Counted from the first letter of the stretch, positions 2 to 60,130 are shown. The stretch is 64,000 nucleotides of DNA from a virus (IMGVR_UViG_3300032296_004087:1-64000); one strand, 5' to 3'. Notes: generated by a model from the sequence alone, not told the origin. A program made the numbers and translations.

Positions 2-1060
2 CAAGGTGCCCAAGGAGGACAAGGGTTTCAAGGTGCTGAAGGAGCTCAGGGAGCTTTAGGTCCGCAAGGGGCTCAAGGTGGAACAGGATTCCAAGGAGCT
101 CAAGGAGCCATAGGTGCTCAAGGGTCTCAGGGTGCTCAAGGGGGTCAGGGATTCCAAGGTGCTCAGGGTGCTCAAGGACCACAAGGTTCTCAGGGAGCGG
201 TAGGAGGTCAAGGATTCCAAGGTGCTCAAGGTCACATAGGGCCACAGGGTTCACAAGGTGCCGTCGGAGCTCAAGGTTTCCAAGGAGCTACAGGAGCAAC
301 CGGTCCTGAAGGTGCTCAAGGAGCTCAAGGAGGACAAGGTTTTCAGGGAGCTACGGGACATATAGGTGCTGTTGGCCCACAAGGTGCCCAAGGAACTACT
401 GGTTACCAAGGAGCTCAAGGTGCTCAAGGTGCGAAAGGTCCTCAAGGTGCACAAGGAGGTCAAGGATTCCAAGGAGCTCAAGGTGCTCAAGGTGCGAAAG
501 GTCCTCAAGGTGCTCAAGGAGGACAAGGATTTCAAGGGGCTACAGGAGGTCAAGGTGCTCAAGGTTTTCAAGGAGCAACTGGAGGACAAGGATTTCAAGG
601 AGCACAAGGTGCTCAAGGGGCTGTAGGACCTCAAGGAGCTCAAGGAGGACAAGGGGCACAAGGGCCTCAAGGAGCGCAAGGTTCTAAAGGACCTCAAGGT
701 GCTCAAGGACCTGTAGGTTTTCAAGGAAGTCAAGGTGCTCAAGGAGCTACAGGACCTCAAGGAGCACAAGGAGGTCAAGGTTTCCAAGGAGCGGCTGGAG
801 CTCAAGGATTCCAAGGTGCTGCCGGTGGACAAGGTGTTCAAGGAGGTGTTGGACCCCAAGGTGCTCAAGGGGTACAAGGGGCGAGAGGACCACAAGGTGC
901 CCAAGGTGCTCAAGGAGGTGGAGGTCCTCAAGGAGCACAAGGTGACATAGGTGGAGCTGTTGCAGGTCCTCAAGGAGCTCAGGGGCAAAAAGTTGCTACA
1001 GGTGCTCAAGGTCCAACTGGACCACAGGGTGCTCAAGGAGCTCCCGGTCCAACTGGACCT
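2..1060 (+). repeat. 9-nt periodic collagen-coding repeat (caaggNNNN)
   Basis: Tandem caaggtgct/caaggagct-like units encoding G-X-Q triplets. Confidence 0.9.
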
Positions 1061-1390
1061 TCAGATTTTAGATTAAAGACAAACATTCATCAAATTGAAT
1101 CCGCATTGGAGACAATACAGAAAATCAGAGGTGTTGAATTCAATTGGTTAGAAGATTATGCTTGGGGAAAGAAAGAAGAGCCAGAAATAGGATTCATTGC
1201 ACAAGAAATACTTCAGTTTTACCCTGAATTAGTGGTTGGTTCTGAACAAAATACCTACATGGTAAGATACGGTGAAGTAATTGCTATTTGTATCGAGGCT
1301 CTTAAAGAACAGGATACTATAATCAATCAACTCGAAGAAAGAGCTGAAAAATTATTTAATAGGGCGAAAGAAAAAGGTTTGCTGATTTAG
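2..1390 (+). CDS. collagen-like (Gly-X-Gln) tail fibre with C-terminal peptidase S74 intramolecular chaperone; 5' end outside window
   Basis: Frame 2 reads [14 protein letters not shown]... as an uninterrupted G-X-Y repeat to ~1060, then [29 protein letters not shown]...IGFIAQE (S74 signature), continuous with the 1106-1390 ORF. Confidence 0.9.
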
Positions 1391-14625: not shown

Positions 14626-14973
14626 CTAAAGTAAAAGTTTTACTTGGTCCCCTTTTTTTATGTCAAGCTCATTTGCGGAACTACCTTGAATTTCAAGAAC
14701 TAATCTTCCTCTACCGCAATAACTATCACAATCTTCATCCTTACAAGGCTGGCAATTGTGATGTACTTTAGTTATCGTTGTTCCTTCAATAAAGATTATG
14801 TCTAAGGGGATTATACAGTTCTTCATCCAAAAACAACTGGTGTCTTCATCCATAACAAATAACATTCCGTTGAACTCATCAGTGAAAGTTCTGTTCATCA
14901 TTCCTTGAGCTTTGTCAAAATTACTTGTAACAACTTTTACATTAAAGATATTATCCCCTATTTTTAACCTCAT
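14626..14973 (-). CDS. DUF192 family protein
   Basis: QGMMNR...GMLFV...FWMKNCIIPLDIIFI...LVLEI. Confidence 0.85.
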   Translation of the reverse strand: MRLKIGDNIFNVKVVTSNFDKAQGMMNRTFTDEFNGMLFVMDEDTSCFWMKNCIIPLDIIFIEGTTITKVHHNCQPCKDEDCDSYCGRGRLVLEIQGSSANELDIKKGDQVKLLL

Positions 14974-15623: not shown

Positions 15624-15697
15624 TGCGGGATAGAGCAGTTGGTTAGCTTGCAAGGCTCATAACCTTGAGGTCGAAGGTTCGAATCCTTCTCCCGCCA
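15624..15697 (+). tRNA. tRNA-Met(CAT), initiator-like
   Basis: Cloverleaf with CAAGG-CTCATAA-CCTTG anticodon arm, GGTTCGAATCC T arm, 1:72 mismatch, A11-U24; CCA not encoded. Confidence 0.9.
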
Positions 15698-15719
15698 CTA
15701 ACTCCAAATTCAATTTCCC

Positions 15720-16429: not shown

Positions 16430-17170
16430 AACAGGCGGTTTAGCGTCTTTAGATAACCCCAGCGATGGGACTAAAAGGGATGAAGGGTTTAGCGACCTTT
16501 GTAGTCTCGCAGGGCTTCGGTCTTGACAACTAAACAAAGTACCTACGGTGAAAACCCTGACGGCAAGTGCTGAGGGGGAGACATCATCCCGATTTTGTAG
16601 AGAATCGGGGTTGAGATGGAGACATCAACAGGAAAAGGTACAGGTGACGGTTTGAGACATCCCGCTGGGTGTTGTAAAGCTGAGTACCAGTCTGAGGGGT
16701 TACCACGGGTTTAAACCCACCGTAGTCCTGATTGACCGTCAACTGGCGGGTTGACAGAGAGGTGTGAAGCATTTCGTTCTCAAAAGGAATGGACCTTCTC
16801 CCGAAGCACATCTTTCATTCTTCTACAAAGCTACATATCAATGTGAATGATATTCAATGATACAAGCAAAAGTCTTCGGGCGTTGGTACTGAAAGGTGTC
16901 TAATCCTTCAGGTCATCGGACCAATGAAGGCACGGATAGGACCGCAAGTCCATCGGTGTTGATTGAGAAACTACTCGTGGGACGGCCATCCCTCAGTCAG
17001 CTCGCAAGGTTGAAGAGATAGGAGTATCAGTTGAGTTGGTGTCAACGAAAAGAGTGGTAGACTCAAATTACCGACATTGGTTGGTTACGACAGGCAACTG
17101 TTGTGGACCGAGTGGGGAAACCATAATCCCACCAAAGACTGACCACCTAAGCTCGTAGTCTCAGAGCATT
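16430..17170 (+). ncRNA. large ornate structured RNA, GOLLD-like
   Basis: ORF-free, GC-raised ~740 nt with many GNRA/UUCG hairpins and long-range pairings; own promoter, boxA-like TGTTCTTTGAA and terminator; close to a tRNA. The GOLLD name is inferred; boundaries approximate. Confidence 0.65.
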
Positions 17171-18105: not shown

Positions 18106-18891
18106 TTACATATTTGAAAAATAAAGAGGGGTGGGAAACTCCGAATATGAAATTATCCCTTGTAAAATCATCCCTTTATTTTTTGGTCGGTTAAAAATTT
18201 GCTTAACAAACTTTTCATCACTTTCAAACTGAAGAAAAGTTTCAGTCCTTACTGTTACATCATACTCCTTTAACACTTTCAATCGGTTTTCAAATACGTT
18301 AGAAAGTGGAGTTGTAGTACCTTCATAATCGTTCAATTCTGAATTAACTTGAGCATCATCTGATATTTCGAAATATACTTCAATACTTTTTTCTTGCCAA
18401 TCTTCTTCTTCACCAGTTCCATCACAAGTATCACAACTACCAGAACCATCCCCATCACAATAATCACACCCAACTTCTCCAGTACCTTGGCAAGTTGAAC
18501 ACGGTTCACCATCGATTTCTTCAGTACCATCACATTCAGGACATTCATATTCACCCCTACCATCACAATAATCACAGTCTACTTCGCCGTCACCATCACA
18601 TGCAGAGCAAGTATCAAAAACATCGGTGTAAGAGGTGTAAAAGGTTAAAACTATTTTAGTTTCTTCAGTTTTCAAAATAAGATAGTTTAAATCCAAATTT
18701 GAATCTACTTGAGTCAACTGATAAATGAAAATAAATAATTTGAAAATACTTTCTTCATCAAAAAGAGAGAAAAACTCATTTTGTTTAGTATACAAATACT
18801 TGAATCGTTCTAAAAAAGTTTCCATATTTTCCCCTGAGGGAAAAAAAGAAACTAATTTTTTGGCTATGATATAAAGTTTTTCGTTAGTCAT
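18106..18891 (-). CDS. protein with DnaJ-type CxxCxGxG zinc-finger repeats
   Basis: Six CxxCxGxG-like repeats; no J-domain HPD. Confidence 0.75.
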   Translation of the reverse strand: MTNEKLYIIAKKLVSFFPSGENMETFLERFKYLYTKQNEFFSLFDEESIFKLFIFIYQLTQVDSNLDLNYLILKTEETKIVLTFYTSYTDVFDTCSACDGDGEVDCDYCDGRGEYECPECDGTEEIDGEPCSTCQGTGEVGCDYCDGDGSGSCDTCDGTGEEEDWQEKSIEVYFEISDDAQVNSELNDYEGTTTPLSNVFENRLKVLKEYDVTVRTETFLQFESDEKFVKQIFNRPKNKGMILQGIISYSEFPTPLYFSNM

Positions 18892-21821: not shown

Positions 21822-22911
21822 AAAATACGATTACATAATTGTGGGCTCCGGTTTATTCGGGGCCACTTGTGCATATGAACTATCAAAAAAGTTCAAGTGT
21901 TTGGTAATAGATAAGCGTTTAACCATTGGAGGAAACTGCTACACCGAAAACTTGGATGGAATTCATATTCACAGATATGGAGCTCACATTTTTCATACCT
22001 CTGATAAAGACATATGGGAATGGGTGAATCAATTTGCGGAATTCCGACAATTTGTCAATTCACCTATAGCAAATTATAACGATGAGTTATATTCTCTCCC
22101 ATTTAATATGTGGACATTCCATCAATTGTGGGGAGTAAAAACTCCTGAGGAAGCTAAAGCAAAAATTGAGAGTCAAAAATATAAAGGTGCCATCACTAAC
22201 TTGGAAGAACAAGCTCGTTCAATGGTTGGTGATGACATCTATTTTAAACTTATCAAAGGGTATACTGAAAAACAATGGGGTAAAAAGTGTACAGAACTAC
22301 CAGCATCAATTATCAAAAGATTACCCGTTAGATTCACTTGGGATAACAATTATTTTAATGACAAATACCAAGGTATACCAATTGGTGGTTACACACAAAT
22401 CTTCGAAAAACTTCTCAGTGGTATTGAAGTTCACTTAGGCACGAATTTCTTTGAAAAAAGAGATTACTATGAATCAATATCGGATAAGATTATCTACACA
22501 GGACCTATTGATGAGTTCTATGACTATGAATTTGGTAAATTGGAATATAGAAGTCTTAAGTGGGAAAATACCTACATGCATACTGAAAGTTTTCAAGGAC
22601 ATCCTGTGGTTAATTACACTGATGATGAAACTCCTTACACACGGATTATTGAACACAAGTATTTTGACAATCAAAATCAAAAAAGAACTTATGTAAGTAA
22701 GGAGTTTCCATGTGATTATACGGGTGATAACGAACCCTATTATCCCATACGAGATGAGATTAATTCAGAAATGTATAGGAAGTATAAAGAACTTGGTGAA
22801 ATTTCTTTAAAATACATCTTTGGTGGTAGACTTGGGACTTATATGTACTATGACATGCATCAAGTGATTGGTCAAGCCTTAACAACGGTTAATAAGCTGA
22901 TTCGAACTTAA
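21799..22911 (+). CDS. glf: UDP-galactopyranose mutase
   Basis: IVGSGLFGA, IGGNCY, HRYGAHIFHT, YTEKQWG, EPYYP, GRLGTYMYYDM. Confidence 0.95.
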   Translation: MSLSPFHKKYDYIIVGSGLFGATCAYELSKKFKCLVIDKRLTIGGNCYTENLDGIHIHRYGAHIFHTSDKDIWEWVNQFAEFRQFVNSPIANYNDELYSLPFNMWTFHQLWGVKTPEEAKAKIESQKYKGAITNLEEQARSMVGDDIYFKLIKGYTEKQWGKKCTELPASIIKRLPVRFTWDNNYFNDKYQGIPIGGYTQIFEKLLSGIEVHLGTNFFEKRDYYESISDKIIYTGPIDEFYDYEFGKLEYRSLKWENTYMHTESFQGHPVVNYTDDETPYTRIIEHKYFDNQNQKRTYVSKEFPCDYTGDNEPYYPIRDEINSEMYRKYKELGEISLKYIFGGRLGTYMYYDMHQVIGQALTTVNKLIRT

Positions 22912-28859: not shown

Positions 28860-29147
28860 ATGACAACATTTACTATTATTAATATGATTGGATGGTCTTC
28901 TTTGTTGATTGCATACCTTGTTAAAGGTTACATGTCACGAAAGGAAACTCAAATTCAAGAACAACTTAATCAACGACTTCTTAAGTCAAAGGATTTATCC
29001 ATTGAAGAAGTAGTTCAACTGGCACATGAGATGGAAGACCACCAAATTAAAAGATTCGGGGCATACGGTTCCTATGGTATTTATTCACAAATTTTAACCT
29101 TTGGTATTGGGTTATTCACCGCAAATCTTATTTTTCAATTTATTTAA
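28860..29147 (+). CDS. two-TM membrane protein
   Basis: Hydrophobic N- and C-terminal helices. Confidence 0.65.
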   Translation: MTTFTIINMIGWSSLLIAYLVKGYMSRKETQIQEQLNQRLLKSKDLSIEEVVQLAHEMEDHQIKRFGAYGSYGIYSQILTFGIGLFTANLIFQFI

Positions 29148-29157
29148 ATAAATTATT

Positions 29158-29595
29158 ATGACTATAAAACAAGCGCTCAAAGAAAAAAATAAACTTACCA
29201 AACAGATAAACTCTTTGGTGATTCGTATACAAAAATATAACTCAATGGAAGAAGGTTCTGTTCGAACCTACGACCCAAGGGAAGACATGAACAACTTAAC
29301 CAATACTGTCTCTAATTTGGTTACACTCAAAACTCAAATTCACCAAGCAAATGCCAAGGTGTATGATTTGATTTTCCGTCTCTCAGAATGTAAGGGAATG
29401 GTAAAATATCTCCGAGCAATCGATTGTACCGAGGGTAAGACCAATGAGTCTCGCAGATATGGTGAATCTGCAACCATTGTAAAAACCACCATTTTTAACC
29501 AAGTGGAGATGGATAATATTATCTCTAATTACGAAACTGAGATTGAGAAAATCCAAGAGGAGTTGGATGTTCACAATGCAACCACCCACATTTAA
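29158..29595 (+). CDS. coiled-coil protein, tentatively DIP1984/DUF6847-like
   Basis: MTIKQALK...LVTLKTQIHQAN...IQEELDVHNATTHI; family match from memory. Confidence 0.65.
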   Translation: MTIKQALKEKNKLTKQINSLVIRIQKYNSMEEGSVRTYDPREDMNNLTNTVSNLVTLKTQIHQANAKVYDLIFRLSECKGMVKYLRAIDCTEGKTNESRRYGESATIVKTTIFNQVEMDNIISNYETEIEKIQEELDVHNATTHI

Positions 29596-29780
29596 GTTGG
29601 TGTCTGTTAAGAGATGGGATTTTTCGAACCAAGGTTCAACCTACATTAAACACTAAGTAGTGGATGTTTGATTTCGATGGGAATGTCAAAAGTCATAAAT
29701 CAACATAGTTCAAAAGTCGTCAAAGGAGCATCAATAATCTCAAAACTCTTTTAAATAAATCTCTGACCTTACAGCCCAAC
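29596..29780 (+). ncRNA. putative structured RNA / 3' UTR with periodic UCAA motifs
   Basis: Ends pair (gttgg/ccaac, ctgt/acag, gagat/atctc); TCAA at 29686, 29700, 29710, 29720, 29731, 29740. Confidence 0.45.
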
Positions 29781-29781
29781 A

Positions 29782-29811
29782 GCCCCCACTCTTTCCGAGT
29801 GGGGGTTTTTT
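29782..29811 (+). terminator. intrinsic terminator
   Basis: gcccccactc tttcc gagtgggggt ttttt. Confidence 0.8.
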
Positions 29812-29836
29812 GATTATATTTATAAAAAAAAAGATT

Positions 29837-29983
29837 ATGTGGTTTATTTACTTAATTGTTTTCTCACTCCTTATGGGAGGTTTATTTGTTTTGGCAGAAT
29901 TAGTTGTTTATAATTTACCTAATACTATGTTTTCGAAATGGTGGAGAAAATATGTTGTATTTGAGTGTCAAGATTGTGATTAA
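29837..29983 (+). CDS. small membrane protein (48 aa)
   Basis: Hand-translated MWFIYLIVFSLLMGG...FSKWWRKYVVFECQDCD after TATTTAT. Confidence 0.55.
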   Translation: MWFIYLIVFSLLMGGLFVLAELVVYNLPNTMFSKWWRKYVVFECQDCD

Positions 29984-30002
29984 TAGAATCAGGTAACCCT
30001 TT

Positions 30003-30455
30003 TTATGGTTCTAATTTAGAAATCATATTTAGACAATTTTCTTTTATCCACTCAGGTTCCCCTTGAAGAATTTCAATGAATTGGAGTTCCCATAGATAAC
30101 AAATATATTCTTCCTTTAATAAAGAAAAAGATGTTCCTGATTGAATAATTTCCAAGTGTTTTGATTCATGAACCAAAATGCACGCAATATTTTCAACGGA
30201 ATTTAGTTTCATATCACCCTGTGAAATTGTGATGGTGTAATTACCCTCTACAGTTGAGAACTCTCCGTTCCAAAAACTTATTTTTTTACAATGTTTTAAA
30301 ACAAAGTTATAAGTTTTGGTGTCGGTATGTTTAATTAGTTCTAATGCTTGTTCAACCTGAGGAACCCAAGTATCACCTACCAAGTCAATTTTAATTTGTC
30401 CACAAACTTTTAAATTAATTAATAGAAAAATTGGTAACCAAAGAAATTTTTTCAT
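30003..30455 (-). CDS. secreted HExxH zinc-metallopeptidase-like protein
   Basis: Signal-like N-terminus; ILVHESKH...EEYIC. Confidence 0.6.
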   Translation of the reverse strand: MKKFLWLPIFLLINLKVCGQIKIDLVGDTWVPQVEQALELIKHTDTKTYNFVLKHCKKISFWNGEFSTVEGNYTITISQGDMKLNSVENIACILVHESKHLEIIQSGTSFSLLKEEYICYLWELQFIEILQGEPEWIKENCLNMISKLEP

Positions 30456-30485: not shown

Positions 30486-32381
30486 ATGAGAAAATTATTA
30501 TTTCTTTTTTTCGGGACAATTCTTGTGAATAATTTATATTCACAGTCGTGTCCTATACCAACTTTAACAGGAACTCATATCACTATAGATTCCACTTATC
30601 AGATTGGTACATCAACAGCGGGTAAAACAAATGTTGGACTTTGTTTTTATAATAATTCAGGAACTGATATCGCAGCAGTGCAATTTAGACTGTTTTATGA
30701 TAATCAAGCTTTTGGGTCCGTTGATACCATAACTTCTTTGAACACAACTTTTTCACAATATCTCCAATATCAGGATAATCCTGCTTTGGGATATGTGACC
30801 ATTACCCTCACATATACCGGTAGTCTCAATACATTTGATATCCCTGACGGTGGATTGTTTCAAGTGACATTGAACCACACTGCGGCATTGTCAACTACCT
30901 ATTTCAATGTGGGTAATTTAACATTTAATGGTGGTAATGTGTTCAGTGAGACTGCGACCTCACAAGGGGGTAATGACTTTACTTTGAACCTCACAAATTT
31001 TGGTGGTCAGTTATTGTCTCGTACTTTTTCATATCATGTAAATTTTATGAATGTTACCGGTACACCCGCTAAACATGTAAGTGTTGCTCTTGAGAAAAAG
31101 TTAAAAACAACTTCAACTTGGACTTCTGTGAGTGTTGATACTAGCAACCTTCAAGGATGGGTATCATTTAACGATGTTAACATTGATACTACAGCGTTCG
31201 ATGTTAGACTTGCTGTACAGGGAGACACTTTAAACTTTGGGAACATTATTTCTGTTGCTGATGCTCAGAGAGTGAATCAATATGTACTTGGTCAACAAAC
31301 ACCAACAGGGTTTGATTTCCACGCTTCTGATGTGAACGGAGATGGTCAGATTACAATATCCGATGTTTATGCAATTTACGGAAGAATATCAGGTAGGTTC
31401 TCTTCATGGATTAACTCAGTTGCAGATGTGAAATTCTTCACCGAGGCACAGTTTAACACAATTGATGGTTCAGCTTCAAACCTTATTTCTTCAACAGGTG
31501 GAGTAACTAACTTCACATTCGAAATTCTACCAAATACCTCCGATACTGTAACATACTATGTTTTAGGAATGGGAGATGCTAACGGAACAGGATTCAAAAG
31601 AGCTCGTTTAACACCCATCGAAATAGTTAATCCCAATAATGCTAACTTACACATTATAGATGTTACTACAGAATACGACAATAACCTTGAGAGCATCGAA
31701 GTTAATTTTCCTGAATTGGGAGTTGATGAGGGGGATTTGGTAAGTGTTCCTGTAACTTTAAAAACAAATGATATCGATTTGGGCTCATTGCAATTAGCTA
31801 TTAAGTATGATAGTGACCTATTAGAATTCGAATCTTTGGTAACTGAGTTGAAGAGTTCTTATTGGTTGACATTTATCAACACAAATGATGGTGAAGTTGA
31901 GTGGGGGGGATATGACCCTTCATTCAATCAAAATTTAGTAAACAATGGTGAAATCCTTTTTACTTTAAACTTTACTGCAAATGAACTTCAATCCGATTGG
32001 AATAAAAGTCCTTTATATGTTACAAGAAAGTTTGCTGGTGACCAAAACGCAAAGGATTTAAAAATCACCCCAACTGATGGTATATTACAAGTTTTAAAGA
32101 TGGACCCCAATGACATATCGGTTAAAAATCAAATGGTTTTATTCCCCACACCAACCGATGGTTTAGTTACTGCAAGGTTTAAACTTTATGAAAAAAGTAA
32201 TGTGACTTTAGCTGTTTACGATTTAGGGGGTAAGTTAGTTTTTGAAGTAATTGAGGGAACTTATCCAATAGGAATTTATGAACAAACTTTTGATTTAGGT
32301 TCTTTAGCGGCAGGTGAGTATGTTGCAATTCTCAATACTGAAAAAAAGAAAATTGTTGAAAGAACAACAAAAACAAAATAA
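30486..32381 (+). CDS. secreted cohesin-dockerin-cohesin protein with T9SS C-terminal sorting domain
   Basis: Signal peptide; IAAVQFRLFYD and VSVPV..LGSLQLAIKYDSDLLEF cohesin-like segments; SDVNGDGQITISD dockerin loop; LFPTPT...VYDLGGKLV...LAAGEY tail. Confidence 0.75.
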   Translation: MRKLLFLFFGTILVNNLYSQSCPIPTLTGTHITIDSTYQIGTSTAGKTNVGLCFYNNSGTDIAAVQFRLFYDNQAFGSVDTITSLNTTFSQYLQYQDNPALGYVTITLTYTGSLNTFDIPDGGLFQVTLNHTAALSTTYFNVGNLTFNGGNVFSETATSQGGNDFTLNLTNFGGQLLSRTFSYHVNFMNVTGTPAKHVSVALEKKLKTTSTWTSVSVDTSNLQGWVSFNDVNIDTTAFDVRLAVQGDTLNFGNIISVADAQRVNQYVLGQQTPTGFDFHASDVNGDGQITISDVYAIYGRISGRFSSWINSVADVKFFTEAQFNTIDGSASNLISSTGGVTNFTFEILPNTSDTVTYYVLGMGDANGTGFKRARLTPIEIVNPNNANLHIIDVTTEYDNNLESIEVNFPELGVDEGDLVSVPVTLKTNDIDLGSLQLAIKYDSDLLEFESLVTELKSSYWLTFINTNDGEVEWGGYDPSFNQNLVNNGEILFTLNFTANELQSDWNKSPLYVTRKFAGDQNAKDLKITPTDGILQVLKMDPNDISVKNQMVLFPTPTDGLVTARFKLYEKSNVTLAVYDLGGKLVFEVIEGTYPIGIYEQTFDLGSLAAGEYVAILNTEKKKIVERTTKTK

Positions 32382-36583: not shown

Positions 36584-37183
36584 ATGACTAAAATAAAATC
36601 ACTAATACTATTAAGCCTTGTAAGTTTAATTTTTATTTCCGCACAAGCTTTAAAAGATGTTAAAGTTAAAAACCAAATTTTTGAGGTAAATTACTCTCAA
36701 TCATTAGAACAACCACTTGAACTCACTTATCGTTCTATTAATAGACCTACAAATGTAAATCGTGGTTCTATGGATTTTAAAACAGAACCTAATGTTCATA
36801 CTTCAGACCATAACGATTATGCAAAAAATATTTGGGATAAAGGACACTTAGCTCCCGCAGCTACTTTCTCAGATAATATGGATAATCTCAAAACTACTTT
36901 CTCATATCTTAATTGTGCCTTACAAGACCAATACTTAAACAGGGGGGAATGGAGATTACTTGAAGAACAAGAAAGAAAATGGGATGACAAAGAAAATCTA
37001 ACAGTAAGGATAATATTGGATTTTGATAAGAGTTCTTTAGTTATCCCAACAGGTGCAATGGTACCTAAGGGTTTTACCAAACACATTTATTTCGAAACAT
37101 CAAAGAAGTGGGAATGTTATTACTTTCCAAATGAAAAACCAACAAAAAAATGGAATGAACACAAAATTAAGTGTGTTCACTAA
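36584..37183 (+). CDS. secreted DNA/RNA non-specific endonuclease (NucA-like)
   Basis: WDKGHLAPAA...TFSYLNCALQ...LNRGEWRLLE. Confidence 0.9.
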   Translation: MTKIKSLILLSLVSLIFISAQALKDVKVKNQIFEVNYSQSLEQPLELTYRSINRPTNVNRGSMDFKTEPNVHTSDHNDYAKNIWDKGHLAPAATFSDNMDNLKTTFSYLNCALQDQYLNRGEWRLLEEQERKWDDKENLTVRIILDFDKSSLVIPTGAMVPKGFTKHIYFETSKKWECYYFPNEKPTKKWNEHKIKCVH

Positions 37184-50532: not shown

Positions 50533-51136
50533 TGATATTCTCACGATGATATTTGATAATCTCGCTTCCAATAATGAATCTGGAAATGTGGATGTTCTAA
50601 ATAATCTCAACATAGAGATATTAAATAAAATTGCTCACCCAAGTTTCAACATCAATATGTTCACTGAAGTTGATGCGAATCAATACCCACAATTTTGTTT
50701 AGGGGTATACAACCCATCAATTAAAAAAACTTTGGTAAACAAATATAACTTAGATATTAACAAAGCCATTAATGTTATTCATTCAACATTAAACAAGAGC
50801 GACACAGCTATTTTAGGTGGGGGAATACTAATTAACTCACTAGTTAGCATAGCAGCTCATACTATAATAGGAAATTACGTGAGCATAAACAGACATGTAT
50901 CAATAGGTCATCACACGACAATAGGGAATTACACTTCAATCAACCCAGGGGTAAACATAGCAGGTAACGTAAGTGTAGGAGAAGCAACGACAATAGGAAT
51001 GGGGGCAAATGTATTAAACAAAATAAAGATAGGTTCCAATACAATCGTAGGAGCTGGCTCTGTTGTCACAAAAGACTTACCAGATAATGTTGTAGCTTAT
51101 GGAAACCCATGTAAGATTATAAGAGAGAATATATGA
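50498..51136 (+). CDS. NeuD/PglD-like sugar acetyltransferase
   Basis: Hexapeptide repeats, IGHH, GAGSVVTKD, GNPCK. Confidence 0.9.
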   Translation: METNLLIVGKGDDILTMIFDNLASNNESGNVDVLNNLNIEILNKIAHPSFNINMFTEVDANQYPQFCLGVYNPSIKKTLVNKYNLDINKAINVIHSTLNKSDTAILGGGILINSLVSIAAHTIIGNYVSINRHVSIGHHTTIGNYTSINPGVNIAGNVSVGEATTIGMGANVLNKIKIGSNTIVGAGSVVTKDLPDNVVAYGNPCKIIRENI

Positions 51137-54278: not shown

Positions 54279-54279
54279 A

Positions 54280-54980
54280 TGTGTAAATCAGTTCACGCAG
54301 TTCGGGGGTGAGGTTAAAACCCTAAAGGGTTTCACCCCCTCACTTTGTTCTCTGATTCACACATTCCCCCCCCTTTAACAAGCCCCCCTTTTTAAGGTGA
54401 CACAATAGTAGGTGGTAGATTATACCTAACCTTTATGATGACAAAGACAAGGGGACTTCGTCCCAAATTCATACATCATAACCCATAGGTATTTTCTATT
54501 CTTATAAAGGTAATCCCACTTTTACCCACAGGGTTTTATTAGGGGATTTTAATGAGATACTATTTGAGGTCACCTGTTAATGTGTCAGTTAAATGGGGGG
54601 GATTTATGGTCGATTATAGGGATAAACTATCACCCTTGAGGTCCTCGTTGAAGGAGATTTCATCTCTCGGGCGGTCTGATACTATAACATCCTTTTTTTG
54701 CTGGAGTTTCTAATACCTTAAAAATTACCTCTGACGCTATCTACAGGGGGGATTTTTTATGGCTGGTGATACGACCAGCAAGAATATGTGGTAGAAAGTG
54801 GGGACTAGTGGAGAGGGGGGAACATAGGTAAAACCTATCAAAGGGATTGCCCTTTCCTTAACGCTCAACCAAATTCCTGACAAATTGTCAAAAATGGGAC
54901 ATGGGAGTAACCCCCACTTTCCCCCCCTTTATATCACCACACGGAAATTAGATTTACAAATCACCATTATTTTATATGTT
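54280..54980. other. long non-coding region with hairpins and G/C homopolymer runs
   Basis: No credible ORF; nested inverted repeat 54278-54365. Confidence 0.5.
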
Positions 54981-55745: not shown

Positions 55746-55838
55746 ATGGTTGACACAGTAATCATTCTCCTTCTTGTTATTGCAGTTCTTGCAATGGTCA
55801 TCGGGTATTTCATATCCCAAAACATCGAAGACCTATGA
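55746..55838 (+). CDS. tiny single-TM protein (30 aa)
   Basis: After sigmaA promoter 55710-55741; MVDTVIILLLVIAVLAMVIGYF. Confidence 0.45.
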   Translation: MVDTVIILLLVIAVLAMVIGYFISQNIEDL

Positions 55839-56172
55839 ATCCAATCTGGCTCATCCCCATTATCGTATTGGTAATCCTCGGAGCACTTGTCATATACGAA
55901 AGAGGTCGCGACTGAACGGGGGGGAGGACACAGTAGCACCCTGTGTTAACCTCCCCTCCATATAGGGTCCCCCTATACCCCCTTAGAGGGGGGGGGTCCC
56001 CCGTATCCCCCCCTACTACCCCCTATTTTTGGTCACAGGGGGGGACAATACCGTCTGTGTAGCAAAAAAATTTTTGGTAAAAAAATTGATATTTTCCATA
56101 ACTCGACCCTTGTTTTTAAATGGGGGTCAAAATTAAAAAAAGAATTTTTGGAAAATTTTCCTATTTATTGAT

Positions 56173-56825: not shown

Positions 56826-57617
56826 ATGAAGATTGTCATCTCAGAGGGCCAGTACGAAAGGTTGATTGAAACCGAAGAGGAGGAGAAAGTTCTTCGTATA
56901 CCATCTTTGAAAATTTTCGATGATGATTGGTTTGTTTTACAAAAGTTTTTGGAGTTAAAGGGTAATCCACCTTATTCTATTGGGGGAGATTTGGACTTAT
57001 CAGAATTACCAATTCAATCATTGGGAAACCTTCAATCAGTTGGTGGGTTTTTGGATTTGAATGAAACACCAATTAAATCCCTTGGAAATCTTCAAACAGT
57101 TGGTGGAGATTTGGACTTGGAAGGAACACCAATTCAATCATTGGGAAACCTTGTATCAGTTGGTGGGACTTTGGATTTAAAAGGAACACCAATCAAATCT
57201 TTGGGAAACCTTAAATCCGTTGGCGGGGATTTATCTTTGGTAGGAAGAGCAATTGAATCTTTGGGAAACCTTGTATCAGTTGGTGGGGATTTATATTTGC
57301 AAGAAACACAAATCGAATCTTTAGAGAACCTACAATCAGTTGGGGGAAAGTTGGATTTGAATTGGTCAAAAATCCGTTCTTTGGGAAACCTTCAATCTGT
57401 TGGTGGGGGTTTGGATTTGGAAAAAACACCAATTCAATCTCTTGGAAACCTAACATCCGTTGGTGGGTATTTGGATTTGAGATATTCACGAATTAAATCC
57501 TTGGGAAACCTTCAATCAGTTGGTGAGTTTTTGGATTTGAGAAAAACACCACTATCTAAGATGTACACTAGAGAACAAATCCGAGAAACGGTAAATGTTG
57601 CGTATATCTATTTATAA
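56826..57617 (+). CDS. LRR protein, 10 x 20-aa repeats
   Basis: MKIVISEGQY leader; SVGGxLxLxxTPIxSLGNLx repeats. Confidence 0.9.
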   Translation: MKIVISEGQYERLIETEEEEKVLRIPSLKIFDDDWFVLQKFLELKGNPPYSIGGDLDLSELPIQSLGNLQSVGGFLDLNETPIKSLGNLQTVGGDLDLEGTPIQSLGNLVSVGGTLDLKGTPIKSLGNLKSVGGDLSLVGRAIESLGNLVSVGGDLYLQETQIESLENLQSVGGKLDLNWSKIRSLGNLQSVGGGLDLEKTPIQSLGNLTSVGGYLDLRYSRIKSLGNLQSVGEFLDLRKTPLSKMYTREQIRETVNVAYIYL

Positions 57618-57620
57618 GTT

Positions 57621-58052
57621 ATGAAGATTGTCATCTCAGAGAGCCAATATAACAAGTTGATTGAATCCGAAGAGGAGCAGAAAGTTCTTCGTATACCATC
57701 TTTGAAAATTTTCGATGATAATTGGTTTGTTTTACAAAAGTTTTTGGAGTTAAAAGGTAATCCAACTTATTCAGTTGGTGGGGATTTGGATTTGCAAGGA
57801 ACTCCAATCAAATCTCTTGGAAACCTTCAATTTGTTGGTGGGTATTTGTCTTTGCAAGACACATCAATTGAATCTCTCGGAAACCTAAAATCAGTTGGTG
57901 GGTATTTGAATTTGGCATATACATCAATCGAATCTCTTGGGAACCTTCAATATGTTGGTGGGGATTTGAGTTTGCATGGTACACCCTTATCGATTTACAC
58001 TAGAGAACAAATCCGAGAAATGATAAATGTCGAAGGTAGAATTTATAAATAA
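57621..58052 (+). CDS. LRR protein, 4 repeats
   Basis: Same leader, cap and repeat. Confidence 0.9.
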   Translation: MKIVISESQYNKLIESEEEQKVLRIPSLKIFDDNWFVLQKFLELKGNPTYSVGGDLDLQGTPIKSLGNLQFVGGYLSLQDTSIESLGNLKSVGGYLNLAYTSIESLGNLQYVGGDLSLHGTPLSIYTREQIREMINVEGRIYK

Positions 58053-58055
58053 ACC

Positions 58056-58610
58056 ATGAAGATTGTTATCTCAGAGAGCCAATACCAAAGGTTGATTGAA
58101 TCCGAAGAAGAACAGAAAGTTCTTCGTATACCATCTTTGAAAATTTTCGATGATGATTGGTATGCTTTACAAAAGTTTTTGGAGTTGAAAGGTAATCCAA
58201 CTTATTCAGTTGGTGGGGATTTGGATTTGCGTGATTTACCAATTAAATCCTTGGGAAATCTTAAATCCGTTGGTGGAGATTTATATTTGGAAAGAACACC
58301 AATTAAATCATTGGGAAACCTTCAATCCATTAATGGAGATTTGTATTTGGGAGGAACAATAATAAAATCTCTTGGAAACTTAACATATGTCGGTGGGTTT
58401 TTGGATTTGAGAAGAACACCAATTGAATCCTTGGGAAACCTTCAATCCGTTGGTGGAGATTTGGATTTGTTTGGGGCTCAAATTAAATCATTGGGAAACC
58501 TTCAATCCGTTGGCGGGTATTTGGATTTTAGAAGTACACCCTTATCTGATATGTACACTAAAGAACAAATCCTACAAATGGTAAATGTTGGTGATGATAT
58601 CTATTATTAA
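58056..58610 (+). CDS. LRR protein, 6 repeats
   Basis: Same leader, cap and repeat. Confidence 0.9.
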   Translation: MKIVISESQYQRLIESEEEQKVLRIPSLKIFDDDWYALQKFLELKGNPTYSVGGDLDLRDLPIKSLGNLKSVGGDLYLERTPIKSLGNLQSINGDLYLGGTIIKSLGNLTYVGGFLDLRRTPIESLGNLQSVGGDLDLFGAQIKSLGNLQSVGGYLDFRSTPLSDMYTKEQILQMVNVGDDIYY

Positions 58611-58613
58611 ATC

Positions 58614-59288
58614 ATGAAGATTGTTATCTCAGAGAGCCAATTTAACAGGTTGATTGAAACCGAAGAAGAGCAGAAAGTTCTTCGTATACCATCTTTGAAA
58701 ATTTTCGATGATGATTGGGATGTTTTGCAAAAGTTTTTGGAGTTGAAAGGTAATCCACCTTATTCCTTGGGTGGGGATTTGTTTTTGATGGGAACACCGG
58801 TTAAATCCTTGGGAAACCTTGTATCCGTTGATGGGTATTTATACTTGGAAGAAACACCAATTAAATCATTGGGGAACCTTCAATCTGTTGGTGGGTATTT
58901 GGATTTGAGAGGAACTCCAATCAAATCCTTGGGAAACTTAATATCAGTTGGTGGGGATTTGGTTATGGATGATACGCCAATTAAATCCTTGGGAAACCTT
59001 CAATTCGTTGGTAACAGGTTGTATATGCCAGGAACAAAAATAGATTCTTTGGGAAACCTTAAATCTGTTGGTGGGGATTTGTCCTTACAAGGAAGTGAAA
59101 TACAATCTTTAGGAAACTTAACAACAGTTGGTGGTGAGTTAAATTTAATCTCAACAAAAATCAATTCTCTTGGTAAATTAAATTTTGTTGGTAAAAATTT
59201 ATATTTACAACGAACACCTTTATCTAATGAGTACACTGAAGAACAAATCCGTAAAATGGTGGATGTTAAGGGTGAAATCTATTTATAA
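58614..59288 (+). CDS. LRR protein, 8 repeats
   Basis: Same leader, cap and repeat. Confidence 0.9.
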   Translation: MKIVISESQFNRLIETEEEQKVLRIPSLKIFDDDWDVLQKFLELKGNPPYSLGGDLFLMGTPVKSLGNLVSVDGYLYLEETPIKSLGNLQSVGGYLDLRGTPIKSLGNLISVGGDLVMDDTPIKSLGNLQFVGNRLYMPGTKIDSLGNLKSVGGDLSLQGSEIQSLGNLTTVGGELNLISTKINSLGKLNFVGKNLYLQRTPLSNEYTEEQIRKMVDVKGEIYL

Positions 59289-59629: not shown

Positions 59630-60064
59630 ATGAAGATTGTTATCTCAGAAAGCCAATACCAAAGGTTGATTGAAGTCGAACAAGAGCAAAAAGTTCTTCA
59701 TATTCCTTCATTGAAAGTTTTTGGTTTGGATAGATTGGAAGCTTGGAACAACCTGCAAGAATTTCTGGAAAGAAAAGGTAATCCACCTTATTCTATTGGT
59801 GGTAATTTGGTCTTAGCAGAATTACCAATTGAATCTCTTGGAAACCTAAAATCAGTTGGTCAGGCTTTGGTTTTGTCAAATTCACTAATCAAATCTTTGG
59901 GTAATCTCGAATCCGTTGGTGATGATTTGTATTTAAACAGAACACCAATTCAATCTCTCGGAAATTTGAAATTCGTTGGTGGAGATTTGTATTTGAGAGG
60001 AACACCAATTTCCCAAAGTCCAATTACGGGTGTTAAAGTTGGGGGAGGAATTATGAGAGGGTAA
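59630..60064 (+). CDS. LRR protein, 4 repeats
   Basis: Same leader and repeat, more divergent caps. Confidence 0.9.
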   Translation: MKIVISESQYQRLIEVEQEQKVLHIPSLKVFGLDRLEAWNNLQEFLERKGNPPYSIGGNLVLAELPIESLGNLKSVGQALVLSNSLIKSLGNLESVGDDLYLNRTPIQSLGNLKFVGGDLYLRGTPISQSPITGVKVGGGIMRG

Positions 60065-60130
60065 ATTGATTACTCCCCCCTTTAGACTATCTCCCAACGA
60101 AAAAACAATTTATGGAAACTATTTAAGATT

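Follow-up and report, generated by a model that had tools for sequence, protein, structure and literature searches.

A compact module of ~650 nt, in which a gene for a DIP1984-like protein is followed by a structured RNA in its 3′ untranslated region (UTR), lies on the plus strand of IMGVR_UViG_3300032296_004087:1-64000 (hereafter the window, i.e., the whole 64,000-nt stretch of viral DNA that was analysed, itself part of a 117-kb virus record estimated to be ~49% complete). The open reading frame (ORF) occupies positions 29158–29595, encodes 145 aa and ends with a TAA stop codon at 29593–29595; the RNA element follows at 29596–29780. Comparison with related viral loci showed that this RNA is conserved, structured, oriented in the sense of the gene and linked exclusively to it. 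We put the probability at roughly 50% that gene and RNA give rise to a cognate ribonucleoprotein (RNP), in which the RNA from the gene's own 3′ UTR would be the ligand of the preceding protein and which would be autoregulating or trans-acting.

In the window, the element as delimited by folding and covariance models is 185 nt long, which is also the family median. Its two ends form a long closing stem, P1: the 5′ strand (29596–29622; GTTGGTGTCTGT..GAGAT) begins directly after the stop codon and pairs in the minimum free energy (MFE) fold with the 3′ strand (29757–29780; ATCTC..ACAGCCCAAC). This fold reached −59.8 kcal/mol (z −3.9), a value equalled by none of 200 shuffles. A terminator scan located an intrinsic terminator right behind it (29781–29812), consisting of a G+C-rich hairpin at 29781–29807 with 11 pairs, 7 of them G-C, and a T run. 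The first-pass annotation, made from the sequence alone, had described this 185-nt non-coding segment with paired ends and a terminator behind it, and sequence, fold and scan agree with that description. The TCAA motifs that it had listed at 29686, 29700, 29710, 29720, 29731 and 29740 and the TCAT at 29693 are likewise all present, and another TCAA is found at 29636. Its remark that so long a gap is rare in this compact genome was fair, as the gap ranks 8th among 100 inter-ORF gaps with a median of 35.5 nt in a crude greedy ORF map.

Searches for known RNA classes returned little. With Rfam 15 at the gathering threshold, only a GOLLD RNA and one tRNA were detected in the window and the element had no match; at E-values up to 10 within 29100–30100, the best rows reached 13–22 bits against thresholds of 40–100 and were driven by the terminator. 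None of the Rfam families, including 6S, 6S-Flavo, Y RNA, tmRNA, ToxI and CsrB/RsmZ, reached its gathering threshold at the element. ARAGORN found no tmRNA in the window, and Tandem Repeats Finder reported no array at the element. Across the elements of the family described below, the longest stop-free stretch had a median of 36 aa and a conserved ORF was not seen.

Relatives were collected from IMG/VR, where the protein query yielded 41 loci and a profile query 249 relatives, 80 of which were kept. Deduplication left 64 distinct downstream sequences, the window's included, with protein identities of 37–88%. The element was present downstream of the gene in all 64 loci, abutting it in 61 and displaced in three. 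The 61 abutting elements are 150–230 nt long (median 185) and start no more than 12 nt from the first base of the stop codon; in 35 of them P1 begins within the stop codon itself. A terminator-like hairpin follows P1 in 35 of these 61 relatives, and in 40 of 63 by a second pattern. By eye, two loci (L083 and L084) carry an insertion of ~100 nt in the 5′ part of the element. In a third locus, L117, a 62-aa ORF with a CxxC...CxxC pattern (zinc-ribbon-like; L117 1940–2128) separates the DIP1984-like gene from the RNA, and P1 starts at the stop codon of this intervening ORF; the broader of our two covariance models, R2, confirmed the L117 copy with 66.8 bits. L102 likely has the same order of gene, ORF and RNA.

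The sequence of P1 differs wholly between subfamilies (GUUGG.../...CCAAC, UAAUC.../...GAUUA, AAUAUCUG.../...CAGAUAUA and UUGGUUGGGG.../...CCCAACCA), and the pairing is kept. Global MAFFT alignments misalign this stem, and RNAalifold applied to them gave no P1 or no structure at all; therefore, covariance-model alignments and per-sequence duplex tests were used. Model R1 was built from the window's subgroup and R2 from the matches of R1. The window's element scored 201.7 bits (R1) and 168.8 bits (R2), matches which, for a seed member, hold by construction. Independent support for the family model comes from the relatives: at E-values up to 0.01, R2 recovered 47 of the 68 family loci searched, and 42 of these 47 lay outside the R1 seed. 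In the resulting 47-sequence alignment all 21 pairs of P1 showed changes on both sides, and ~83% of the P1 cells stood in standard pairs, compared with 39–48% for the whole structure when the 3′ partners were slid by 1–3 columns. None of 500 shuffles reached the covariation score observed for the 47 sequences, and a 17-sequence alignment led to a similar result. In an alignment-free comparison the P1 duplex was stronger on the plus strand in 59 of 61 elements (mean −23.0 vs −17.3 kcal/mol; Wilcoxon p 2e-11), with G-U pairs making up 10% of all P1 pairs; this argues for a gene-sense RNA helix and against a site in double-stranded DNA.

Between the two strands of P1, the alignments revealed a common order of features. 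First comes a small variable hairpin, P2 (29626–29637 in the window; GAACC-AA-GGTTC), which holds the TCAA at 29636 and is mostly present in the relatives too, each time with a sequence of its own. It is followed by a cUA(CA) box (CUACA at 29641–29645; consensus cUA), by three (U)GAU units ~7 nt apart (29663, 29670 and 29676, within 29663–29678; consensus gA....uGAU), by a loop and by a run of U-C/U-A-A units. The run leads into a UUAAAACUC(UUU) box before the 3′ strand of P1; in the window this box reads UCAAAACUC(UUUU) (29740–29752), and no other stretch of the family is as well conserved (consensus UtAAaActc.ttt). By these features, i.e., P1, GAU units, UYAA units and a UUAAAACUC box directly 3′ of a DIP1984-like ORF, the window's element is a regular member of the family.

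Base pairing of the GAU units with the leading (G)UCA units, one to three in number, gives an imperfect hairpin, P3 (29663–29694). In the MFE fold of the window's element, GAU at 29663–29665 pairs with GUC at 29692–29694, the beginning of GUCAU, and UUUGAU at 29667–29672 with GUCAAA at 29685–29690. The UGA/UCA core of P3 is paired in 41–46 of the 47 aligned rows, and an outer G-C pair is replaced by A-U in five rows; in another subfamily, RNAalifold drew an equivalent helix with one compensatory change from G-C to A-U. A further GAG/CUC helix of the window's subgroup, P4, was dropped because most relatives lack it or leave it unpaired (helices 5 and 6). The pairing of GAU with (G)UCA means that the periodic units are partly one strand of a helix. 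The motifs had been thought to lie in unpaired RNA, which fits the later UCAA units (29700, 29710, 29720, 29731 and 29740, within the single-stranded run at 29700–29743) and fails for the first one or two, which pair with the GAU units.

Each element contains three to seven UYAA units, of which three to six are predicted to be single-stranded; the units are 4–5 nt long and 7–16 nt apart. The window's element holds seven TCAA where 3.3 are expected, a number reached by 27 of 2000 dinucleotide shuffles. Enrichment in this single element is thus modest and becomes decisive only together with its conservation: across the family, the count per element is 4.7 TCAA where 2.0 would be expected, and the enrichment holds at the 5% level for 40 of the 61 elements taken singly. 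With six TCAA per 60 nt, the element is also the densest such spot of the window. The only other spots with at least five fall into a collagen-like coding repeat (455–721) and stem from the 9-nt codon repeat of an ORF at 2–1390. Distances from one TCAA to the next over the 61 elements were most often 7 nt (59 cases), followed by 8 nt (26), 14 nt (25) and 10 nt (22). The first-pass annotation's ~10-nt periodicity is accordingly real in the window and peculiar to it, as the family mostly spaces its units by 7–8 nt. A ~10-nt period that is a local variant also speaks against phasing to the DNA helix.

The link between RNA and gene was approached from the RNA side as well, with a pattern blind to the protein (TCAA-N3-TCAA-N3-4-TCAA-N10-40-TAAAACTC), which matched 76 loci in IMG/VR. 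In 33 of them a DIP1984-like ORF was found within 750 nt upstream (hmmsearch, E up to 1e-3), many of these 33 being from contigs already in the first set and hence not independent. The remaining 43 lacked such an ORF; four of these had less than 300 nt of upstream sequence, and one of the four, L140, resembles a true element cut at the end of the locus, whereas the others look coding and are devoid of P1 and GAU units. Model R2 accepted 27 of the 76 loci, all of them among the 33 behind a DIP1984-like ORF and none among the 43. A single copy of the element is present in the 117-kb virus record. Weak model matches elsewhere in the window (14745–14882, 18700–18752, 36871–36899 and 60035–60100; 12–16 bits, E 0.09–1) were regarded as chance; the first three, on the plus strand, are partial R1 matches that cover mostly the A-rich box region. 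No flanking protein family was common to more than 14 of the 64 loci, so that gene and RNA together constitute a self-contained module. The proposal of a protein–non-coding RNA pair had come with the suggestion to examine homologues, and in these the closing stem and the repeat cluster recur downstream of the gene, as the terminator usually does too. Since gene and RNA travel together in this way and have no other conserved neighbour, the pair is well supported by comparative evidence.

More distant relatives extend this picture. Two of them, L206 and L207, share 33% and 27% identity with the window's protein, and L212 and L213 are 30–32% identical to L206. In L206, L212 and L213 the long closing stem around GAU units and the repeat run are kept; in L207, the repeat run and the UUAAAACUC box are found behind a short intervening ORF. 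The repeat units themselves differ, being GUUAAA(A) in L207, UUUAAG in L213 and AUAGUAA heptads in L212 (~1450–1660). The unit thus shifts with the divergence of the protein within a constant architecture, as a co-evolving protein–RNA interface would give, and the changed units of L207, L212 and L213 are a possible read-out of such co-evolution.

The protein at 29158–29595 (+) has a DIP1984/DUF6847-like fold with three helices and a β-hairpin, according to hidden Markov model (HMM) searches, AlphaFold2 (AF2), Foldseek and complex prediction. By HMM alone the assignment falls short, with 34.2 bits against the curated cut-off of 70 for NF038048 (NCBIfam, DIP1984 family) and 24.3 bits against 27 for PF20935 (Pfam, DUF6847), the weak matches spanning nearly the entire ORF. 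Precomputed PF20935 matches are present on some close homologues, as well as on Atlas clusters of look-alikes, and the close look-alike clusters are 86–98% viral. The AF2 model (predicted local distance difference test, pLDDT, 89.5) comprises helices at residues 3–28, 40–86 and 115–142 and a β-hairpin at 93–109. Foldseek compared it best with the solved member 3KDQ from Corynebacterium diphtheriae (chain A: template modelling score (TMq) 0.66; chain C: 0.70; E 9.8e-3 and 3.7e-2); over the 3KDQ matches the score ranged from 0.63 to 0.70, and chains A and C were the sole matches with probability 1.00, the next being at ≤0.44. The first-pass assignment to DIP1984-like proteins thus holds by the predicted fold, even though both HMM scores are below their cut-offs, and the window's protein belongs to a viral subfamily. 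PHROGs and PADLOC contained no match for the protein, and phmmer and profile searches of the Protein Data Bank (PDB) sequences gave nothing meaningful. The family comprises 1845 clusters at 50% identity (E up to 0.001). In the INPHARED isolate set the protein was absent except in two uncultured jumbo-phage assemblies, and no cultured phage there carries the module. One source automatically labels a homologue "entry exclusion protein", a pointer to an exclusion role that is not reliable.

The protein probably forms a homodimer. Predictions with two copies gave ipSAE values of 0.64, 0.64 and 0.65 versus 0.00 for the best of three controls; for calibration, 20 of 30 proteins solved as one-chain pairs reach the applied mark, and so does one of 23 solved as single chains. 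At least 89% of the contacts were common to the runs and partner pLDDT was at least 90. The predicted interface follows helix 2 in antiparallel fashion and takes in many of the conserved polar residues (N28, S29, K58, H62 and E77). The idea of an oligomer is thus supported as a predicted homodimer. The N-terminal helix is conserved and lysine-rich, with a mean net charge of +3.8 over the first 20 residues; in the predicted dimer this helix and the end of the C-terminal helix are free and offer candidate ligand surfaces.

Transcription of the module has weak evidence: part of the stretch appeared in a single metatranscriptome run (share 0.19), with one contig at 29376–29632 that crosses the stop codon with three differences and leaves the element uncovered beyond 29632. 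That gene and RNA are co-transcribed we infer.

How might protein and RNA act together? If the RNA is indeed the cognate ligand, several protein dimers would bind its reiterated units to form an RNP, which could feed back on the protein's own mRNA or act in trans. With P1 starting at the stop codon, folding of the element might compete with ribosomes terminating on the ORF, and P1 could also serve as a stalk for double-strand-specific processing that releases the RNA. A more detailed version appears doubtful to us: a phage RNP class in which DIP1984-fold dimers would sit side by side on heptad-spaced UYAA(A) units, nucleated at the GAU/UCA hairpin, on an RNA freed by cleavage of the P1 stalk. 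Such a particle might play a part in phage–host conflict. It could be a decoy for defences directed at RNA, those that cut anticodon loops among them, or an exclusion toxin that the RNA neutralises.

Several observations weigh against a cognate RNP. Linkage alone would also be expected from a purely cis-acting 3′ element. The ORF between gene and RNA in L117 indicates that the two need not abut. Two canonical bacterial DIP1984 genes, from a sample of 401 Bacteroidota genomes, are not followed by such an RNA, and R2 found nothing there; hence, the fold does not need the RNA. Taken over its full length, the protein is not basic and is close to neutral (median isoelectric point, pI, 6.3, range 5.4–8.7), and no known RNA-binding domain was found in it by Pfam, NCBIfam, PHROG, PADLOC and PDB profile searches. 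The dimer prediction used an in-house alignment and may reflect memory of 3KDQ-like structures. On the RNA side, the pair counts come from structure-fitted alignments of related sequences and lean towards the model, while shuffling of the P1 5′ strand had a moderate effect (median z −2.8; in 50 of 64 elements at most 5 of 100 shuffles were as good). The metatranscriptome contig, finally, ends 37 nt into the element and may be DNA carry-over.

Four other explanations deserve consideration. An unlikely one is that the RNA acts on a factor of the host or of a rival, either as a multivalent decoy or sponge for an RNA-binding protein or nuclease or as a trans-acting small RNA derived from the 3′ UTR, with the protein a mere helper (chaperone or stabiliser) or unrelated apart from shared expression. 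The many short single-stranded units in a stem-closed loop would suit such a role. The sequence U-YAA-A, moreover, is presumably similar to that of the anticodon loop in tRNA-Leu(YAA); phage counter-measures against anticodon nucleases are known. In L140 (1–540), the element, 5′-cut by the end of the locus, directly precedes a tRNA cluster, with genes for Glu-UUC, Tyr-GUA and Met-CAU following within 40 nt. Strict linkage to one protein family down to ~27–33% identity is, however, unexpected if the protein is irrelevant, and a host target should keep the unit constant, whereas it drifts with the protein (UCAA, UUAAA, AUAGUAA). Nor does the element show its units the way anticodon mimics would, namely in 7-nt loops on stems of 5 bp; T-loop or anticodon-loop mimicry was set aside, as the closing stems are absent.

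Rather improbable, in our estimation, is a purely cis-acting element at the 3′ end of the mRNA, i.e., a structured 3′ UTR that together with the terminator would serve transcript stability, termination or translation and has no protein partner. The start of P1 within 12 nt of the stop codon in all 61 abutting elements, and inside it in 35, and the terminator behind 35 of the 61 accord with this explanation, yet the other 26 have no terminator following, and in L117 the element stands behind a different ORF. A stabiliser of the 3′ end would need only a hairpin, whereas here sequence boxes and repeat units are kept over deep divergence. We prefer a cognate RNA ligand to a plain 3′ stabiliser because the conserved interior is elaborate, because the repeat unit drifts together with the protein and because the element survives insertion of an ORF between gene and RNA. 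Three further likenesses were set aside: that of ACUCUUUUAA to boxA antitermination sites is conserved in some subfamilies only, complementarity to the 5′ end of 16S rRNA is imperfect, and a sponge for Rho YC sites does not fit the UUAA variants.

We likewise see little probability in a toxin–antitoxin-like pair, analogous to type III systems, in which the protein would harm the cell or a competing phage and the adjacent repeat RNA would neutralise it as bound inhibitor or decoy substrate, making the module a phage-borne device for addiction or exclusion. A self-contained two-part unit in varied genomic contexts, a protein joined to a repeat-bearing RNA with a terminator, and repeat units that change along with the protein all accord with it. 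The fold is nonetheless a helical bundle and not ToxN/AbiQ-like, no nuclease motif was seen in the protein, PADLOC had no match, and the conserved N28, S29, K58, H62 and E77 lie in the predicted dimer interface and not in an obvious active site. The repeats are units at 7–10 nt instead of ~36 nt, and their place downstream of the gene implies a 1:1 transcript ratio and not an excess of antitoxin. Very improbable, finally, is a DNA-level element, such as iterons or a binding-site array (replication origin, packaging site or partition site) for the upstream protein, with phased A-tracts: short direct repeats and inverted copies (TGA/TCA) beside the gene of a small helical dimer and the window's ~10-bp spacing of one helical turn would fit it, but the family spacing is mostly 7–8 nt and not 10–11, and the long-range stem covaries and is better on the plus strand through G-U pairs, for which double-stranded DNA sites have no need.

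The wider phage genome has other features of interest. A full-length GOLLD RNA (Rfam RF02032; model positions 1–416) was detected at 16757–17167 (+) with 301.8 bits, and a tRNA-Met at 15624–15698 (+) lies ~1 kb upstream of it; together with the 3′-UTR element, the phage thus has at least two large or structured non-coding RNAs. The open-ended ORF at 2–1390 (+), whose codon repeat was mentioned above, encodes collagen-like G-x-y triplets (GAQGGQGFQ...) and a non-repetitive C-terminal domain and is probably a fibre gene. Long tandem arrays of 60 nt (20 aa; periods 60/120/435) at 56980–59081 (+) look like a coding repeat of the leucine-rich-repeat type. The ORF at 30486–32381 (+; 631 aa) has a signal-peptide-like start, and its C-terminal end may resemble sorting domains of type IX secretion, which, if so, would point to Bacteroidota as hosts. 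Four stretches of 273–600 nt have no ORF of at least 45 aa in the crude ORF map (50533–51132, 21822–22107, 54279–54551 and 55826–56172), and none of these matched an Rfam family at the gathering threshold.

For the large DUF6847/DIP1984 family a structure has been solved but no function is assigned, and an RNA partner in the viral branch would be the first concrete lead towards one, namely RNA binding; the phage RNP class sketched above would, if true, provide the first function for these proteins. The module adds a well-supported candidate to the short list of structured phage RNAs with a protein partner encoded in cis and, being small and self-contained, can be synthesised and tested in laboratory strains despite the lack of a cultured carrier in INPHARED. 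In our literature search, DIP1984, DUF6847, PF20935 and NF038048 were not mentioned in any paper found, and "3KDQ" appeared only in two unrelated ones. Papers on "septicolysin", as far as their available text goes, concern plasmid annotation, and the retrieved portions of the literature on structured phage RNAs held nothing relevant. The term "UCAA motif" turned up, in the text at hand, only for in vitro selected aptamers against HIV-1 reverse transcriptase, which we regard as a coincidence of name.

Conserved adjacency of a protein gene and a structured RNA has precedents in Ro–Y RNA, TnpB/IscB–ωRNA, ToxN–ToxI and cis-regulatory elements. Members of the DIP1984 family (DUF6847; 3KDQ; "septicolysin" in some annotations) share the fold of the window's protein, which remains below both curated cut-offs of that family, and the two bacterial members examined come without an RNA. 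Type III toxin–antitoxin systems (ToxIN, CptIN, TenpIN) likewise combine a gene, an adjacent repeat RNA and an intrinsic terminator in a compact mobile module. Their antitoxin consists of tandem units of ~34–36 nt upstream of the toxin gene with the terminator in between, whereas here short units of 4–5 nt, spaced by 7–16 nt, recur inside one folded RNA downstream of the gene. The all-helical model with one β-hairpin also differs from the endoribonuclease fold of ToxN/AbiQ, CptN and TenpN, and Pfam, PADLOC and PHROG gave no match to these families.

TnpB/IscB and their ωRNAs are similar in that the RNA is made from the final part or the 3′ UTR of the protein's own mRNA and moves along with its gene; the window's protein of 145 aa has no nuclease domain, though, its RNA no guide segment and the module no transposon ends. 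Ro60 (Rsr)/Y RNA and 6S RNA share with our element a size of 150–230 nt, a long end-closing stem and a loosely structured interior, and Y RNA also adjoins the gene of its protein partner. Here, there was no Rfam match, a TROVE-domain gene was not found nearby in the 64 loci, and the interior is one large multiloop with repeats instead of a central bubble. The first-pass annotation had likened the element to CsrB-type sponges and TRAP sites. Reiterated short motifs able to engage a multivalent protein are common to all three, and there the analogy ends. CsrB/RsmZ sponges carry multiple GGA motifs, mostly in hairpin loops, and TRAP sites 9–11 (G/U)AG triplets separated by 2–3 nt, whereas the units here are UCAA/UYAA, three to seven per element and most often 7 nt apart, the family consensus shows no reiteration of GGA, the repeats are only partly unpaired, with the first units in a helix, and the presumed partner is encoded in cis on the same transcript. 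A protein with an RNA partner encoded in cis is therefore a known kind of system; the combination of a DIP1984-fold dimer with a stem-closed 3′-UTR RNA bearing heptad-spaced UYAA units and a GAU/UCA hairpin appears to be new.

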